A DNA stretch of 51,374 nucleotides from Candidatus Parcubacteria bacterium (GCA_019661785.1 JAIFWP010000004.1:1-51374); one strand, 5' to 3'. Shown: positions 7,638 to 51,374, counted from the first letter of the stretch. Translations and numbers: made by a program. The notes: generated by a model from the sequence alone, not told the origin.

Positions 7638-8008
7638 TGTGGCAATGGACAGTTAGTTTTCTCTGCCAGAGTCTTCAGGGTCTGTTCGCCAGTAATCCTA
7701 GAGCCATCTCTGAACTGCCATGTTGGATAGCTCTCTATCTTCGCGGCATTGCAGACTGCATTCTGCGATTGGCCATCTGGGTTTGAGCACTCTATATAGG
7801 GCAGGAGCTTCTGCGAAGAGCCGAAGAGGGCCTTGGTGGCCTGGCAGTGCGGACACCAGAAGGCTCCGTAGAATGTGGCTCCGGAGTCCTTGATACAAGT
7901 TGCCAAGCTATCGAGCTTGCCAGTCTTGCCTGGAGTGACTATAAGCCACACTACCAAAGCTACGAAAACTACTGCTACAACGCTCCATATAAGGGTGTTC
8001 TTTTTCAT
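7634..8008 (-). CDS. Membrane-anchored thioredoxin-like protein (VKOR-partner type)
   Basis: Start reassigned to MKKNTL (ATG 8008). N-terminal TM, FYGAFWCPHC, YIEC, IESYPTW. Confidence 0.88.
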   Translation of the reverse strand: MKKNTLIWSVVAVVFVALVVWLIVTPGKTGKLDSLATCIKDSGATFYGAFWCPHCQATKALFGSSQKLLPYIECSNPDGQSQNAVCNAAKIESYPTWQFRDGSRITGEQTLKTLAEKTNCPLPQ

Positions 8009-8025
8009 AATCTTATTATACAGAA

Positions 8026-14559: not shown

Positions 14560-15426
14560 ATGGACCTCAAGGATTTGAAAACCCAGCGTCTGTTAAATGA
14601 CGCGGTGAGAGCAGGCATGTCTGTCGTTCGAAATTCTCAGGGTGGTCTAATCGATAACCCTGAAATCAAAGACGACAAGACCCTCGTCACCACGACCGAT
14701 CGACTCTCGGAAGAGAAGATCGTCAGCATCATCCGTCAGGAGTTCCCTAACATCCGCATCGTGAGGGAAGAAGGGGCCGAGAGCGGAGACAGCGAGATTG
14801 GGTTGCTGATTGACCCTCTCGACGGGACGCGCGCCTTTGCTAGCGGACTGGCGACGTCGACCGTTATCATCGGAGTCTACGACTTCGTGAAGAAGCAAGT
14901 CGTCGGCTGCGTGATTGGTGAGGCTGCCACAGGTAGAGTGCGGTCAGCTTTCGAGGGTGACAGGACTTTCTTCATGTCACCCATGGATTCGAGCCACGTC
15001 TGGGACGGACCTCTCGACGAGCAGTCGACAGTCTTCCTCGATGTCTCACACGGCTTCAGCCGGAAGGGCCGCCAAATCCTCACCGACGAGCATGTGGCCA
15101 GACTCTTCGGCAGGCTGAACGGCAAGATGAAGCTCGCCATCCCCGGCTCGAATGGTCTCATCCAGTCTCTGGTGGCGAACGGCGGACAGCGGGCAGCAGG
15201 CTCCATCACCACCGCTATCGGCGGTCCATGGGACGTCTGCGGCGTGAAGCTCGTACTGAATGCTGGAGGGTCAGCCAGAGCCTTTTCGACCCAGTGGAGG
15301 AATAGCGGGTGCGCTCTAACAGAGCAAGACCCGCTTGATGTCATGGGCTACGACATCCTCATCTGCGGTAATTCAACGCAGACCGTGAAAACTCTCGTGA
15401 ATGAGCTGATCCAGTGCATTTTCTAG
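14560..15426 (+). CDS. Divergent inositol monophosphatase-family protein (stand-alone cassette)
   Basis: Motifs LVTTTDRLSE, REEG, LIDPLDGT.AF, PWDVCG. Confidence 0.85.
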   Translation: MDLKDLKTQRLLNDAVRAGMSVVRNSQGGLIDNPEIKDDKTLVTTTDRLSEEKIVSIIRQEFPNIRIVREEGAESGDSEIGLLIDPLDGTRAFASGLATSTVIIGVYDFVKKQVVGCVIGEAATGRVRSAFEGDRTFFMSPMDSSHVWDGPLDEQSTVFLDVSHGFSRKGRQILTDEHVARLFGRLNGKMKLAIPGSNGLIQSLVANGGQRAAGSITTAIGGPWDVCGVKLVLNAGGSARAFSTQWRNSGCALTEQDPLDVMGYDILICGNSTQTVKTLVNELIQCIF

Positions 15427-27405: not shown

Positions 27406-27421
27406 GAGGTATAATGCCTGT

Positions 27422-28375
27422 ATGGATATCTTAAAAGGGCTCAAACGCTTGGTAAATGGGCCGGAAATCTCTATCTTTCATAAGTTCCAGAAGCCCCCTT
27501 ATGGCGGCGGGAACCAGTTCCTCATGGCTCTGACCAAAGAGATTAAAAGCCGCGGTGTCGACATTGGCCAGAATGCCATAGGTCCGAGTACGAAGTCTGT
27601 CCTCTTCAACTCCTTCGAATTCGACAAGAACGACCTCGCCAGAGGCCGAGAGAGGTTCCACCCGCGCATGATACAGCGCCTCGCCGGACCCATAGGCACT
27701 TACCGCGGCACTGACGACAAAGTAGACCGCGAGATATGGGCCTGGAACGAGCAGTTCGCCGACGCAACGATATTCATCTCCGACTATTCGTATAAAAAGT
27801 ATCTTGAGCTCGGTCTTGTATACAAAGAGCCCCGCACTATATTGAATGCCTGCGACCCCGACATCTTCAACAGGCACGGACGCTCCGCTCCTCCAGACGG
27901 CTCGCGCAAGGTGCGCCTCATAGCCACAGCTTGGTCCGACAATGTGAAGAAGGGCGGCCCTCTCCTCTCATGGCTCGATGCGCATCTCGACCACTCCAAA
28001 TACGAGCTCACCTTCGTTGGGCGCACTAAGGCCGAGTTCAAGGGGGCCAAGGTTATAGAACCTGTACCCTCAGAGAAGCTCGCCGAAATACTCAAGCAAA
28101 ATGACATCTACATCGCTCCGAGCCAAGACGACCCATGCTCGAACGCTCTTGTCGAAGCCCTAACCTGCGGCTTGCCAGCCGTGTTCCTTAAGTCTGGCGG
28201 CCATCCCGAGCTAGTCAAAGAAGGAGGTGAAGCCTTCACCGGAGAAAATGACGTGCTCGAAGCCATCGACAAGGTAGCGGCAAACTATGCGAGATACCAA
28301 GGTCTCATATCCAACCCGACCATGCGCGAGACTGCGGATAAGTATCTCGAAGTCTTCTTGCCCAAGCGAACATAG
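27422..28375 (+). CDS. Glycosyltransferase family 4
   Basis: Motifs PYGGGNQF, KKGG, DIYIAPSQDDPCSNALVEALTCGLP...SGGHPELV. Confidence 0.9.
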   Translation: MDILKGLKRLVNGPEISIFHKFQKPPYGGGNQFLMALTKEIKSRGVDIGQNAIGPSTKSVLFNSFEFDKNDLARGRERFHPRMIQRLAGPIGTYRGTDDKVDREIWAWNEQFADATIFISDYSYKKYLELGLVYKEPRTILNACDPDIFNRHGRSAPPDGSRKVRLIATAWSDNVKKGGPLLSWLDAHLDHSKYELTFVGRTKAEFKGAKVIEPVPSEKLAEILKQNDIYIAPSQDDPCSNALVEALTCGLPAVFLKSGGHPELVKEGGEAFTGENDVLEAIDKVAANYARYQGLISNPTMRETADKYLEVFLPKRT

Positions 28376-38405: not shown

Positions 38406-38454
38406 AGGCCGATTATACCTTTATTTTGGGCCTTTTTAAAGCTATAATGGCCCC
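38406..38454. promoter_or_regulatory. Divergent leaderless promoters
   Basis: TATAAT lies 6 nt before GTG 38405 (minus, 38412-38417) and 6 nt before ATG 38455 (plus, 38443-38448). Confidence 0.75.
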
Positions 38455-39612
38455 ATGAAAATCATCCTAGCCACACCCATTTACCCGCCCGAGATAGGCG
38501 GCCCAGCCACCTATGTGAAGGAGCTCTGCGAGAGGCTACACGGTAAGCACGACATCACTGTGATTGCCTATACCGATGTTCGCGAACCCTTCCCTCATGT
38601 AAAGCTCATAGGCGTAAGCAAGCGCCGACCCCTCCCTGTGAGGCTCGTTAAGTTCTTCCTGGCTCTATGGCACGCGTCTCAAGGAGTCGACATGATATAT
38701 GTGCAAAATGCCATGGCTGCAGGACTGCCGGTATCACTCGTCAGTCTTCTGCGCGGAGTACCGTACGTAGTTAAATTCGTCGGTGACGAGGCTTGGGAGC
38801 GCGCTTCTCAGCACAAACTCACAGACAAGCGTCTGGAGGAATTTTTGAAGAAGCCTGAAGCCCCGTTCCGTATCCGCCTCATGATGGCGGTGCAAGGATT
38901 CGTCCTCCGACATGCTACTAAAGTAACGACTCCATCAGAATACCTCGGTAAAGCTATAGAGAAAGCCTACCGCATAGATCCGCGCCGAGTTGTCACTAAC
39001 TACAATGCTGCCGAGGAAACCGAGACACTGCCCTTCGCCCCCAAAACTGTGCCTCACCAGATAGCCGCTACCGCCCGCTTAGTATCCTTCAAGGGCATCG
39101 ACGGCATTATCCGCGCTACAGCAATACTCAAAAACAAATATAACGATATCCGCTTAGTCATCGCTGGCGAGGGTCCGGATATGGAGAGGCTCCAAGCTCT
39201 TGCGAAAGAGCTCAACCTTGAGGAGAACATCTCCTTCCTTGGCAAGATATCGAGGGCCGAGACTTGGCAACTCCGCAAGAACTCCGAGGTCTATGTCTTG
39301 AACTCAACATACGAAGGGCTCCCGCACACTGTACTCACTAGTTTCGCAGCCGGCATACCTACAGTAGCAACCAACATTTCCGGCACAAACGAGGCGGTAT
39401 ATGATGGCAAAACAGGCCTCTTGGTAGAGCCAGGCGATGACGAGGGCTTGGCCAAAGCTATATCTAGGATATTCGACGACAAGGCCTTGGGCGAGAGGCT
39501 TGTACAAAATGCCACAGAGCTCCTCCATGAGAAATTCTCCTGGGACAAGCACATCGAGAATCTCGAAGCGATATTAAAGTCTGTTCTCCTTAAACCAGTC
39601 CACAAAGATTGA
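38455..39612 (+). CDS. Glycosyltransferase family 4
   Basis: Motifs YPPEIGGPATY, ARLVSFKG, STYEGLPH...AAGIP. Confidence 0.92.
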   Translation: MKIILATPIYPPEIGGPATYVKELCERLHGKHDITVIAYTDVREPFPHVKLIGVSKRRPLPVRLVKFFLALWHASQGVDMIYVQNAMAAGLPVSLVSLLRGVPYVVKFVGDEAWERASQHKLTDKRLEEFLKKPEAPFRIRLMMAVQGFVLRHATKVTTPSEYLGKAIEKAYRIDPRRVVTNYNAAEETETLPFAPKTVPHQIAATARLVSFKGIDGIIRATAILKNKYNDIRLVIAGEGPDMERLQALAKELNLEENISFLGKISRAETWQLRKNSEVYVLNSTYEGLPHTVLTSFAAGIPTVATNISGTNEAVYDGKTGLLVEPGDDEGLAKAISRIFDDKALGERLVQNATELLHEKFSWDKHIENLEAILKSVLLKPVHKD

Positions 39613-43485: not shown

Positions 43486-43899
43486 TCAGCGACTGCGGTC
43501 TGCCGACGTCGCGACTCGCGTCTTCGGCCGATCATCGAGCAGAAGATCAGCCTTGTACGGCAGCTCCTGCCGCTTCCTCATGAAGAGTTCGAAGGCTTTC
43601 GCTCCCTCTTTGGTGTGAAGACCTCCAACCATGTTATTCGTCATCCAAATCAGGTCTTCCTGTGTACGGGCAAGCTCGACCATCTTCGGGTACATGGCGA
43701 CGTCGAACTCGTTCTGCACTTCACGCAGCGCATGACCTTCCTCACGGAAGCCATTGATGTGACGAGATCCTTCATCGAAGTTCTTCGTCACACTCGCGAC
43801 GTAGCGATAGCCGCGGATGCGCTGCGCCTTGTCGAAGAACGGCCGGATGGTCCAGCCAAGAATGGTGGCGGCGAAACCAACAATGAATGTGGTGATCAT
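43486..43899 (-). CDS. Hypothetical protein with N-terminal TM/signal anchor (stand-alone cassette)
   Basis: Has its own promoter, AGGAGG SD and terminator, and a hydrophobic N-terminus. No recognisable family. Confidence 0.75.
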   Translation of the reverse strand: MITTFIVGFAATILGWTIRPFFDKAQRIRGYRYVASVTKNFDEGSRHINGFREEGHALREVQNEFDVAMYPKMVELARTQEDLIWMTNNMVGGLHTKEGAKAFELFMRKRQELPYKADLLLDDRPKTRVATSADRSR

Positions 43900-49729: not shown

Positions 49730-49805
49730 GCGCGTGTAGCTCAGCTGGTAGAGCAATCGACTGATACTCGGTAGGTCCCAGGTTCGACCCCTGGCACGCG
49801 CACCA
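49730..49805 (+). tRNA. tRNA-Ile(GAU)
   Basis: GCGCGTG/CACGCGC acceptor stem, GCTC/GAGC D-stem, ATCGA-CT-GAT-AC-TCGGT anticodon arm, CCAGG-TTCGACC-CCTGG T-arm, A73 and encoded CCA; 76 nt. Confidence 0.95.
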
Positions 49806-49856: not shown

Positions 49857-50057
49857 CTAGCGGAAGAAGTACGTCGCGATCTGGGGCCCAAAGATGATGC
49901 TGAGCCCCACGAGGACAGCGATGCCAACGCCAAGCCAGATGTTCCTGGTCGACTTCTGTTCGACGATCGTCTTGTGCGGTGCAGGATGCACGGCAGCCTG
50001 CTGCCACCGCGCCTTGCTTGGACGATTCCGCTCAGATCTGCCATCAATTGTTCCCAA
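49857..50057 (-). CDS. Small membrane protein, 66 aa, C-terminal TM (cassette)
   Basis: AGGAGG (50068-50063) lies 5 nt before a TTG start. TM IWLGVGIAVLVGLSIIFG. Flanked by a putative promoter and a terminator. Confidence 0.6.
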   Translation of the reverse strand: MGTIDGRSERNRPSKARWQQAAVHPAPHKTIVEQKSTRNIWLGVGIAVLVGLSIIFGPQIATYFFR

Positions 50058-50453: not shown

Positions 50454-50969
50454 CTACTTGGCGTAATCGCACTCCATGAACGACTTGCACGGCCCAGGCG
50501 TCATCCCGTCAGGGTAGACCTCCGAGAAGCCGATGAAGCCCGGACTGACAGCCGGCCAGTTCGGCGCGTTGTCGGGTCCGTGAATGTGCAGGTAGATCCA
50601 GAGCGTCTTGTCGGTCGAGTTGTGACGGACCGTGAAGGAGCTGTGGCGTCCATCTGCGTACCGGACGTACAGGCGGAACTTCGCCATTCGCCGACTCGGC
50701 GCCTTGATCAAGAGGTGAGAGTTTGAGGATTCGCTCTCGACATCTCCGAACGTACCGCGTGCGCACTCTCCGAGAGTGTCGCAGATACTCACTCGAGCAT
50801 TGGCGAAGGCCTGGTTCCCGGTGTAGACCAGAAACGAATCAGGACTCACCGGACGGACCACCACGCCCTTCACGACGGGAACCGTCGCCTTCGGCGCATC
50901 CTTCTGGTCTGCCTTCTGGCTCGGCGCGCAGGCCACAAGGGCAAGCAACGCCAGGATGTTCATCCTCAT
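50454..50969 (-). CDS. Hypothetical lipoprotein (cassette)
   Basis: MRMNILALLALVA-C lipobox-type signal, own promoter and terminator, GC3-rich codons. Confidence 0.75.
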   Translation of the reverse strand: MRMNILALLALVACAPSQKADQKDAPKATVPVVKGVVVRPVSPDSFLVYTGNQAFANARVSICDTLGECARGTFGDVESESSNSHLLIKAPSRRMAKFRLYVRYADGRHSSFTVRHNSTDKTLWIYLHIHGPDNAPNWPAVSPGFIGFSEVYPDGMTPGPCKSFMECDYAK

Positions 50970-51014: not shown

Positions 51015-51042
51015 ATTATATCATATATAAGTATACTGTCAA
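51015..51042 (-). promoter_or_regulatory. Consensus sigma70 promoter TTGACA-16-TATAAT (with TGn)
   Basis: TTGACA 51042-51037 and TATAAT 51020-51015, upstream of the lipoprotein gene. Confidence 0.8.
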
Positions 51043-51071: not shown

Positions 51072-51093
51072 AAAAGCCCCTTGCGGGGCTTTT
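51072..51093 (-). terminator. Terminator closing the 16S rRNA transcript
   Basis: AAAAGCCCC-GCAA-GGGGCTTTT on the minus strand (GNRA loop), about 150 nt after the 16S 3' end. Confidence 0.85.
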
Positions 51094-51245
51094 GCTATCG
51101 TACTCTATTTTGTTCCGTTCACTCAGTGCTTTCCTGAGAGTCATATGCATTTTAGGACTTTGTCATAATTGTCCATCATCCCTCCAGCTTGCGCTGGTCG
51201 GGACGATATCGACTCTGTAACCTTCGCATTAGCGAAAGATTTTCT

Positions 51246-51374
51246 AATTGAATTACTCCACGAGCAGCTTCCGCTACCCGTGCCTTGTTACGACTTACTC
51301 CCTGTCGATGAGCTTACCGTGGGCCCGCTTGCGCGAGACTTCGGGTACTCCCATCTCCCTTGAGTTGACGGGCG
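51246..51374 (-). rRNA. rrs: 16S rRNA gene, 3' end (helices 44-45; partial, continues beyond the window)
   Basis: Minus strand reads CGCCCGTCAACTCAAGGGAG...CCCGAAGTC...GACAGGGAGTAAGTCGTAACAAGG-CACGGGTAGC-GGAA-GCTGCTCGTG. It contains the universal CGCCCGTC and AAGTCGTAACAAGG motifs and an intact 10-bp helix 45 with a GGAA loop. The 3' end position is estimated by analogy with E. coli. Confidence 0.95.

Follow-up and report, generated by a model that had tools for sequence, protein, structure and literature searches.

Introduction

Pairing between the Shine-Dalgarno (SD) sequence and its anti-SD partner in the 16S rRNA is the textbook route to start codons in bacteria. The anti-SD is kept in Actinobacteria and Deinococcus-Thermus; it is also kept, in a sequestered form and with protein bS21 in a central role, in the SD-independent initiation of the Bacteroidetes type. 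Bacteria lacking the consensus anti-SD were reportedly described by Lim in 2012, and in mitochondria the mRNAs are largely leaderless. The present study concerns a 16S rRNA gene whose 3' tail carries no anti-SD. It lies at one end of a 51,374-nucleotide (nt) stretch of DNA from a Candidatus Parcubacteria genome (GCA_019661785.1 JAIFWP010000004.1:1-51374), hereafter the window, which is the entire contig C3 of the genome that holds it (G000: 544,804 bases in 6 contigs, completeness 95.2%, contamination 0.78%).

The closest described case is found in the Parcubacteria themselves. In the accessible part of Tsurumaki et al. (2022, RNA 28:1041; PMC9297842), the anti-SD motif CCTCCT is detected in only 48% of Parcubacteria, the members without it overlap the lineages without uL1, bS21 is often absent, and SD helices are thought not to form in these organisms. 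Among the partial texts retrieved for anti-SD or Shine-Dalgarno in the candidate phyla radiation (CPR), Parcubacteria or Patescibacteria, it is the only paper found on this loss. Amin et al. (2018; PMC6107228) report 128 taxa without consensus anti-SD, in Bacteroidetes, Mycoplasma and Carsonella, 120 of which are without SD; the Parcubacteria are not named in the accessible part of that paper. In the group C genomes of GeneMarkS-2 (Actinobacteria, Deinococcus-Thermus), a Pribnow box stands about 10 nt (spacer of 6-8) before many start codons and the remaining operons carry predicted ribosome-binding sites (10.1101/193490, accessible part). Bacteroidetes-type initiation is touched on in PMC10783764, and the small-subunit rRNA of mammalian mitochondria is without anti-SD according to the part seen of PMC10582724.

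Results

The 16S rRNA gene of the window ends without an anti-SD

The bacterial small-subunit rRNA model RF00177 matches positions 51374..51246 of the minus strand (cmscan, 83.4 bits against a gathering score of 50, E 3.9e-22); the match spans model positions 1391-1533, its 5' side being ended by the contig end, and the window holds just the final 129 nt of the gene. Helix 45 (51282-51259) has 10/10 pairs standard or G-U around a GGAA loop. Where the model has GGAUCACCUCCUUU after helix 45, its GGAUcACCUCCUUu is aligned to GGAGUAAUUCAAUU (51259-51246), and AUUCA (51253-51249) occupies the CCUCC position. By its score and its helix 45 with GGAA loop, the sequence is thus a bacterial small-subunit rRNA, but one deprived of the 3' tail with its CCUCC core. 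Neither CCTCC nor the shorter CTCC and CCTC occur on the 16S strand between 51374 and 51060. A preliminary description of this DNA, which had announced a missing anti-SD after a fully paired helix 45 and no CCUCC before the terminator at 51072-51093, is borne out on both counts: the loss is confirmed, and the feature is genuine and looks functional.

The same kind of tail is found well beyond the window. Out of 41 relatives searched with RF00177, the 16S 3' end was readable in 18 genomes (8 from the same genus, 10 from other families of the order), and all 18 have a non-canonical tail of this kind, conserved within the genus (GGAGUAAUUCAAUUUGAAA). A public scan with the helix-45 sequence of the clade, one genome per species, gave at least 119 contigs; among the matches listed, CCTCC within 25 nt after helix 45 was found in 0 of the 118 contigs with at least 25 nt there. 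The titles of the contigs listed are Parcubacteria, Paceibacterota, Kaiser-, Nomura-, Zambryski-, Taylor-, Lloyd- and Staskawiczbacteria, and it is by such titles of matching records that the organism is placed in the Parcubacteria, class Paceibacteria/Minisyncoccia. Many third-party records of metagenome-assembled genomes (MAGs) titled 'uncultured Candidatus Saccharibacteria' (L066-L145) also carry a helix 45 and a tail of Parcubacteria type and seem to be mislabelled.

For the class as a whole, we used an even sample of 121 genomes, including the one studied here. The helix-45 anchor pattern is present in 90 of them, and the 31 without it were left out. The canonical motif TGRATCACCTCCTT adjoins the anchor in 29 of the 90 genomes and does not in the other 61; G141, G158, G052 and G080, where the motif lies off the anchor, were classed by the anchor, and G129, with the motif and no anchor, was left out. 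Among the best 30 class loci by score, a selection biased to canonical sequences, the canonical tail is present in 17 and lacking in 13. The view of the preliminary description, that such a loss is a rare oddity of reduced symbionts, is therefore not supported: the loss is a clade-wide state, already in print for a subgroup of Parcubacteria, and the window is an ordinary member of this known anti-SD-less clade.

Proteins expected around the 16S 3' end are also missing. No match to uL1 (PF00687) was found in the 95.2% complete genome, the control being found in 14/14 genomes; bS21 (PF01165) and Era (TIGR00436) were not found there either. With the lack of CCUCCU, the titles of the matching records and the loss of uL1, the organism agrees with the anti-SD-less Parcubacteria of Tsurumaki et al. 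Era, which recognises GAUCACCUCC (PMC10582724, accessible part), is above its curated cut-off in only one of the 121 class genomes, G063. This genome has three canonical-tail hits and may be contaminated. Era loss being wider than tail loss, it probably came first. A short bS1-like protein is present (G000:C2:84121-85113, +; 402-amino-acid open frame, E 3e-50 to rpsA, below the curated cut-off); it covers profile positions 19-342, and no other clear S1-repeat protein came up with the rpsA family.

An extended -10 box stands 6 nt before many start codons

Unbiased k-mer enrichment over positions -20 to -1 of the genes of G000 brought out TATAAT, with 48 occurrences against 10.7 expected. We then scored a box as a hexamer matching TATAAT at 5/6 or better and starting exactly at -12 (Table 1). 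Independently of gene calls, the numbers of TATAAT-Nx-ATG sites in the genome for x = 2 to 12 are 4, 2, 0, 0, 33, 9, 10, 3, 5, 9 and 3; the 33 sites at N6 compare with 3 for the reversed pattern, and their ATG is a called gene start in 26 cases and an in-frame candidate start in 29. Exact TATAAT-N6-ATG sites of the window lie at 8006-8020 (-), 27410-27424 (+) and 38443-38457 (+). The 70 genes with a box at -12 have G at -14 (66%), T at -15 (54%) and C at -1 (43%), i.e. a TGnTATAAT type of motif, and no -35 box: TTGACA at 4/6 or better is found in 1 to 5 of the 70 at every spacer from 12 to 23. When the box (5/6 or better) is allowed anywhere from -14 to -11, it precedes 122/615 genes in G000 and 162/614 in the congeneric genome G007. 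Among G007 orthologs with aligned N-termini, the box state is kept in 32/54, against 19/120 for other genes.

Table 1. SD motifs and -10 boxes before genes. SD: core 4-mer GGAG, GAGG or AGGA at -17 to -5; control: window inside the gene; box: TATAAT at 5/6 or better, starting at -12
Genome	16S tail	DNA used for SD	Genes	SD (%)	Control (%)	Box per 100 genes
E. coli (K-12 for SD)	canonical		68	63.2	5.9	0
G000	no canonical tail		615	15.4	11.5	11.4 (baseline 0.5-0.75)
G034	no canonical tail	80 kb	61	6.6	11.5	16.4
G125	canonical	160 kb	163	8.6	8.6	0.6
G066	canonical	100 kb	112	9.8	6.2	3.6
G050	canonical	60 kb	57	12.3	5.3	8.8

From the nature and the position of this motif, we infer an extended -10 box placed for transcription from the A of the ATG, which is the leaderless architecture of group C genomes. 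RNA polymerase would start at that A; many mRNAs would then be leaderless and engaged by their 5'-terminal AUG, with no mRNA-rRNA pairing. The resemblance to group C holds for the -10 box 6-8 nt before many starts and stops at the SD-type sites which group C has in its remaining genes: here, SD frequency is 15.4% against 11.5% in the control, and the genes with SD-like motifs are accessory. Another 148 genes have neither box nor SD and lie no more than 15 nt behind a gene on their own strand; overlaps of 4 nt are seen in 32 pairs of same-strand neighbours, and overlaps of 1 nt in 12. Such close packing and overlaps suggest coupling to the upstream gene.

The box could be something other than a promoter, namely an A/U-rich signal by which ribosomes bind leadered mRNAs without SD, as in group B of GeneMarkS-2. 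Two facts would suit this view, the presence of the short bS1 homolog and the similar frequency of the box before genes lying at most 15 nt behind a same-strand gene (19.2% of 193) and before divergent genes (23.5% of 166); the latter goes against a pure first-gene-of-operon promoter model and fits a ribosome signal too. The motif itself, however, has the attributes of an extended -10 promoter, with TG at -15/-14, TAnAAT, a pyrimidine at -1 and A at +1; its spacing is sharp, with 0-10 sites at spacings other than N6, and agrees with the spacer of 6-8 nt given for leaderless group C genomes in the accessible part of 10.1101/193490; and box and SD-like motif occur together in 2 genes only. We regard a ribosome-binding signal as quite unlikely.

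Across the class, the signature goes with the lack of the canonical tail, and is neither exclusive to it nor universal. In the 29 genomes with a canonical tail, TATAAT-N6-ATG and reversed sites number 510 and 390 (pooled ratio 1.31, median 1.5, ratio of at least 3 in 6 genomes); in the 61 others they number 1465 and 405 (pooled ratio 3.62, median 3.45, ratio of at least 3 in 37).

SD motifs are scarce and precede accessory genes

As shown in Table 1, SD use seems to be low across the class, with or without an anti-SD, as judged from small samples of called genes. In the genome under study, the conserved genes are essentially without SD motif. This agrees with the proposal, made in the preliminary description, that the ribosome does not use SD pairing; what speaks against a strict inability to use it, as that description has it, is a set of 47 genes with a well-placed GGAGG or AGGAG, which the loss of the anti-SD leaves unexplained.

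These SD-led genes differ from the rest in several ways. They follow ordinary TGnTAnnnT promoters and G-poor leaders of 20-40 nt, only 2 of them having the -12 box as well. A reciprocal best hit in G007 exists for 3/47 of them, against 92/122 box genes and 247/446 of the rest, and any tblastn hit in G007 for 5/47 against 376/568 others (Fisher p = 4e-14); the reverse test, starting from the SD-led genes of G007, gives 5/18 against 389/596 (p = 0.002). They are shorter (median of 139 amino acids), have a GC content of 56.8% versus about 52.5%, have a paralog in 4/47 cases, and are scattered singly over all contigs; those of the window are at 14560-15426 (+), 43486-43899 (-) and 49857-50057 (-). 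The first of these, compared with 30 relatives and G000 itself, has matches in 7 of the 31 genomes including G000, and those outside G000 are distant (at most 34% identity). Gene-call-free counts of GGAGG-Nx-ATG show no clear peak above codon periodicity, the signal being visible only relative to called starts. Our best guess is that the SD-led genes are a carry-over from SD-using donors.

One could suppose instead that they are served by a second 16S rRNA bearing CCUCC, unassembled or unbinned, which would be the expressed copy. A genome that is 95.2% complete, has fragmented rRNA genes and shows a positionally specific GGAGG signal leaves some room for it. Against it, the sole helix-45 anchor of the genome is the one on C3, with no other 16S 3' end found, and TGRATCACCTCCTT occurs nowhere in G000; of two relatives with 100% completeness, G007 (3 contigs) has one 16S match and no 16S-type canonical tail, and G034 (5 contigs) has one 16S match; lastly, the SD-led genes are not core genes. 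An expressed second copy is thus very improbable, and the search for one that the preliminary description had called for is negative in this 95%-complete genome. Two candidate sites were discarded: the single GATCACCTCC of the genome (C4:89943) has no helix 45 before it, and CACCTCCTT at the start of C6 is on the strand opposite a piece of 23S rRNA. A relocated anti-SD was also rejected: in the full 16S of 8 relatives, no CCUCC at another place is conserved, 3 of the 8 having none and the one at about 121-132 being confined to the genus.

Nor does it seem at all likely that the SD/anti-SD pair has been rewritten, the new tail pairing with a new upstream motif. The tail is indeed conserved within the genus, and starts are preceded by a motif at a constant distance, but before the genes of G000 the 5-mers able to pair with the new tail are not concentrated at any position, the unbiased k-mer enrichment at -20 to -1 yields only TATAAT-type words, and the upstream motif includes the TG typical of extended -10 boxes and stays constant while tails differ across the clade. 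Likewise, no altered SD corresponding to a variant anti-SD was found by Amin et al. (2018; PMC6107228, accessible part).

The gene is split over two contigs and appears functional

The 5' part of the 16S gene (model positions 1-414) is found at C5:1-395 (-), with 353.9 bits by cmscan; a genome profile search with RF00177 returned 0 matches in spite of these 354-bit and 83-bit pieces, which was taken as a miss of the tool. Full-length 16S genes of congeners are 1508-1521 nt long. Over 25 nt, the 16S leader on C5 can pair with the window trailer at 51121-51097; the same leader/trailer pair is present in the congeneric loci L006 and L008, and from its sequence it is the normal pre-16S processing stem. 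Since the C5 leader pairs with the C3 trailer, the two contig ends belong to one gene.

These data bear on the possibility of an assembly artefact, in which a false tail would have arisen from a foreign or chimeric join just past helix 45. rRNA genes are a classic place for misassembly in MAGs, and the 16S gene is indeed broken over contig ends, the window ending inside it. Such a join is nevertheless contradicted by the identical junction of helix 45 and non-CCUCC tail in the 18 relatives' genomes and in the 118 public contigs among the matches listed (the comparison of related tails was suggested as a check in the preliminary description), by record L113, which has the same tail letter for letter over about 21 nt, by the pairing of the window trailer with the leader on C5, and by the 51 kb of ordinary genome that follow. 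We consider it extremely improbable.

That the gene is functional and not decayed, as first proposed, also stands. The tail type is conserved across the order and beyond, no second 16S 3' end exists in the genome as assembled, and in 100 related sequences the 10 pairs of helix 45 are all kept, one of them being G-C in 59 and C-G in 41. A decaying pseudogene or relic copy, which the missing of a nearly universal motif and a shortened helix 44 (h44), where cmscan marks several non-standard pairs, might evoke, can be dismissed in view of the intact helix 45 and GGAA loop, the compensatory changes in helix 45 and in the mini-hairpin described below, the leader/trailer stem and the lack of any other 16S in G000.

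A probable mini-hairpin takes the place of the tail in most members

After helix 45, the tails of the clade have a GGA-n-U-n-n linker. Of the 137 distinct tails, 108 then carry UC at a constant position (offsets 8-9), and all but one of these (107) have a GA 3-12 nt further on, giving the stem-loop pattern (U/C/G)UC(A/C)-loop-(U/G)GA(A/G/C). In the covariation test the 3' arm was anchored on GA only, which makes the choice of the arm independent of the tested columns. The inner pair is A-U in 68, C-G in 24 and unpaired in 15 of the 107, every C being matched by a G; the 92 paired cases compare with 58.3 ± 3.6 upon permutation, a value that 0 of 5000 permutations reach. The outer pair is U-A in 73, C-G in 7, G-C in 2, U-G in 2 and unpaired in 23, and here 7 of 5000 permutations reach the observed value; in both cases these numbers are not probabilities, the sequences being related. 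This fixed-column approach replaced an 'any hairpin' test, which was too permissive (at least 3 pairs in 133/137 tails versus 95 ± 5 when shuffled, at least 4 pairs in 83 versus 49 ± 5). On the strength of the covariation, we take the mini-hairpin for a real but small structural element; as a guess, it may define or protect the mature 16S 3' end.

Other features of the 16S unit and its neighbours

The features on the 16S strand are collected in Table 2. The first trailer hairpin keeps its pairing among relatives while its sequence varies. The second trailer hairpin of many relatives (L005-L020, L066-L184) forms, its loop of 4 nt included, a perfect palindrome at the DNA level, with CUCAAUUGAG, UCCAAUUGGA, CUCGAUCGAG and CCUUAAGG types, which is unusual for a plain RNA hairpin; that of the window, at 51179-51203 (-), departs from the palindrome type (CCAGC-GCAA-GCUGG). 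On C5, the 16S leader (L001, about 396-445) has two tandem copies of a unit of about 23 nt, TTTTCTCTTTTGTTCCGTTCATT, one of them within the trailer-pairing strand.

Table 2. Features of the 3' part of the 16S unit and of the promoter that follows it
Feature	Position	Strand	Basis or remark
16S rRNA 3' end (top of h44, helix 45, tail)	51246..51374	-	RF00177 match; runs off the contig end
Helix 45: CACGGGUAGC, loop GGAA, GCUGCUCGUG	51259..51282	-	cmscan alignment
Tail GAGUAAUUCAAUUAG where GAUCACCUCCUUA is expected	51244..51258	-	cmscan alignment
Mini-hairpin, clade type UUCA-loop-UGAA; window copy UUC-AAUUA-GAA, 3 pairs	51242..51252	-	covariation in relatives
Trailer hairpin CUUUCGC-UAAU-GCGAAGG	51221..51238	-	minimum free energy fold and relatives' sequences
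Trailer box CAGAGUCGAUAUC	51205..51217	-	GUCGAU core recurs in relatives' tails
Pre-16S processing stem, 3' strand UGAACGGAACAAAAUAGAGUACGAU	51097..51121	-	can pair with ATCGTTTTCTCTTTTGTTCCGTTCA of the C5 16S leader
Terminator-like hairpin AAAAGCCCC-GCAA-GGGGCUUUU, then GUGUU	51072..51093	-	fold of -21.5 kcal/mol; ends the 16S unit
Promoter TTGACA-16-TATAAT (12/12, sigma-70), TG ahead of the -10	51015..51042	-	promoter of the next gene

The terminator-like hairpin is GC-rich and has U-rich sequence after it; it is absent from the list of a consensus terminator scan, probably because its A-U pairs were counted into the stem, leaving too few U after it. No 23S rRNA follows it. The next gene is a lipoprotein-like open reading frame (50454-50969) whose leader of about 39 nt is without GGAGG. 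The 3' end of the 23S and the 5S rRNA genes are on C5 (8457-9269, - strand), about 8 kb upstream of the 16S 5' part (1-395), and the 5' end of the 23S is on C6; 23S and 5S being apart from 16S, the rRNA genes are unlinked. A tRNA-Ile(GAU) gene, of a type often found in 16S-23S spacers, lies 1.4 kb beyond the 16S on the opposite strand (49730-49805, +).

Discussion

The reading that we favour, with a probability of about three in four, is that the window carries the end of a genuine, functional 16S rRNA of a 0.54-Mb Parcubacteria genome, that the lineage has swapped its single-stranded anti-SD tail for a linker followed mostly by a stem-loop, and that many of its starts are leaderless. The remaining genes would depend on coupling to the upstream gene or on unstructured leaders, perhaps with the help of the short bS1. 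As to the order of events, Era would have been lost first, in a class that already made little use of SD; CCUCC would then have come under less constraint, and large sublineages would have lost the tail by mutation as leaderless starts became widespread.

A number of observations weigh against this reading and must be set beside it. The middle of the 16S gene (positions 415-1390) is missing from the assembly, and both the leaderless starts and the 16S 3' end are predicted from DNA sequence. Of the 24 public runs listed, none has half of the sampled words (best share of 0.10). Contigs from RNA libraries (four sets, from relatives) cover helix 45 and some reach the tail, such as X19 record 1 (51241-51366, 5 letters differing) and X24 record 19 (51206-51286, 4 letters differing and a gap); being contigs of relatives with small shares, they cannot show the rRNA 3' end, and missing cover past the tail is uninformative. 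Gene starts come from a home-made caller (codon-usage log-odds, greedy non-overlap, first ATG of the chosen open reading frame), checked on 50 kb of E. coli K-12. Over the 90 class genomes, the association of tail state with box signature has a Mann-Whitney p of about 1e-7, a value that overstates the link because the genomes are kin; moreover 6/29 canonical-tail genomes show the signature and 24/61 tail-less ones are below a ratio of 3. GGAGG or AGGAG at -17 to -5 precedes 47/615 genes of G000, in a position-specific manner: when the 285 genes preceded by 60 nt or more of non-coding DNA are considered, this interval holds the motif in 35 cases, whereas windows of the same size further up hold it in 5 and 4.

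The mini-hairpin also meets with difficulties. In an ungapped alignment its helix is 71% paired, with 2/4 pairs changed on both sides, and in a model-fitted alignment 76% paired, with 3/4; these tool-based counts are weaker because loop lengths differ, and covariance model R1 hardly re-aligned the variable loops. RNAalifold, run on the ungapped MAFFT alignment, predicts helix 45 only and not the mini-hairpin. In the window copy, a U-to-A change leaves UUC/GAA, i.e. 3 pairs, and a single-sequence fold does not choose the hairpin; lastly, a subgroup with GGAUCAUUUAUUU... is without such a hairpin.

When compared with described systems, the locus is nearest to the Parcubacteria subgroup of Tsurumaki et al. 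(PMC9297842), with which it shares the missing CCUCCU and the failure to find uL1 and bS21. That paper, in its accessible part, gives a detection rate; no account of a substitute for the tail, of the use of SD by genes or of leaderless starts was found in that part, and its supplements may bear on these points. The Flavobacteriia (Chryseobacterium, Elizabethkingia, Riemerella, Blattabacterium), Mycoplasma and Candidatus Carsonella likewise have no CCUCCU after helix 45 and no matching SD enriched (PMC6107228, accessible part), but they are of a different phylum and their loss is independent, whereas here a covarying hairpin and a promoter box at -12 are present. From group C genomes, as the accessible part of 10.1101/193490 presents them, comes the likeness of a -10 box close before starts, the difference being that here the anti-SD is gone and conserved genes are without SD. 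Bacteroidetes-type initiation shares the low genome-wide use of SD; it retains anti-SD and bS21, both of which are missing here. Mammalian mitochondria are alike in having no anti-SD, in their reduced ribosome and in initiating at the mRNA 5' end or close to it, but they are organelles that keep the Era homolog ERAL1, and Era was not found here.

A broader proposal would be that, in a large part of the Parcubacteria, the anti-SD has been replaced by a structured 3' element, the covarying mini-hairpin forming an extra helix after helix 45, together with a shift to largely leaderless translation, so that the ribosome would be partly 'orthogonal' and would read SD-dependent incomers poorly. We find this doubtful. 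If it were true, the GC-rich, strain-specific, SD-led genes would be examples of such poorly read incomers, and the loss of the anti-SD would also be a barrier to foreign gene expression.

A hairpin in place of the tail, the scarcity of SD before conserved genes combined with a sharp extended -10 box 6 nt before ATG, and the link of this signature to the state of the tail across the class were not found in print within the literature searched, and a search for literature linking leaderless starts with CPR or Parcubacteria found none. The hairpin, the leaderless signature with its link to the tail and the SD-led accessory genes are to be taken as computational leads. On the practical side, gene finders and start models that assume SD will misplace starts in these genomes, and different 5' ends will be needed for Parcubacteria genes in E. 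coli or for foreign genes in Parcubacteria. More generally, clades without the rRNA half of the SD pair show how translation initiation can be rebuilt; if the leaderless reading is true, these organisms would offer a bacterial parallel, of free-living size, to mitochondria and to many archaea.

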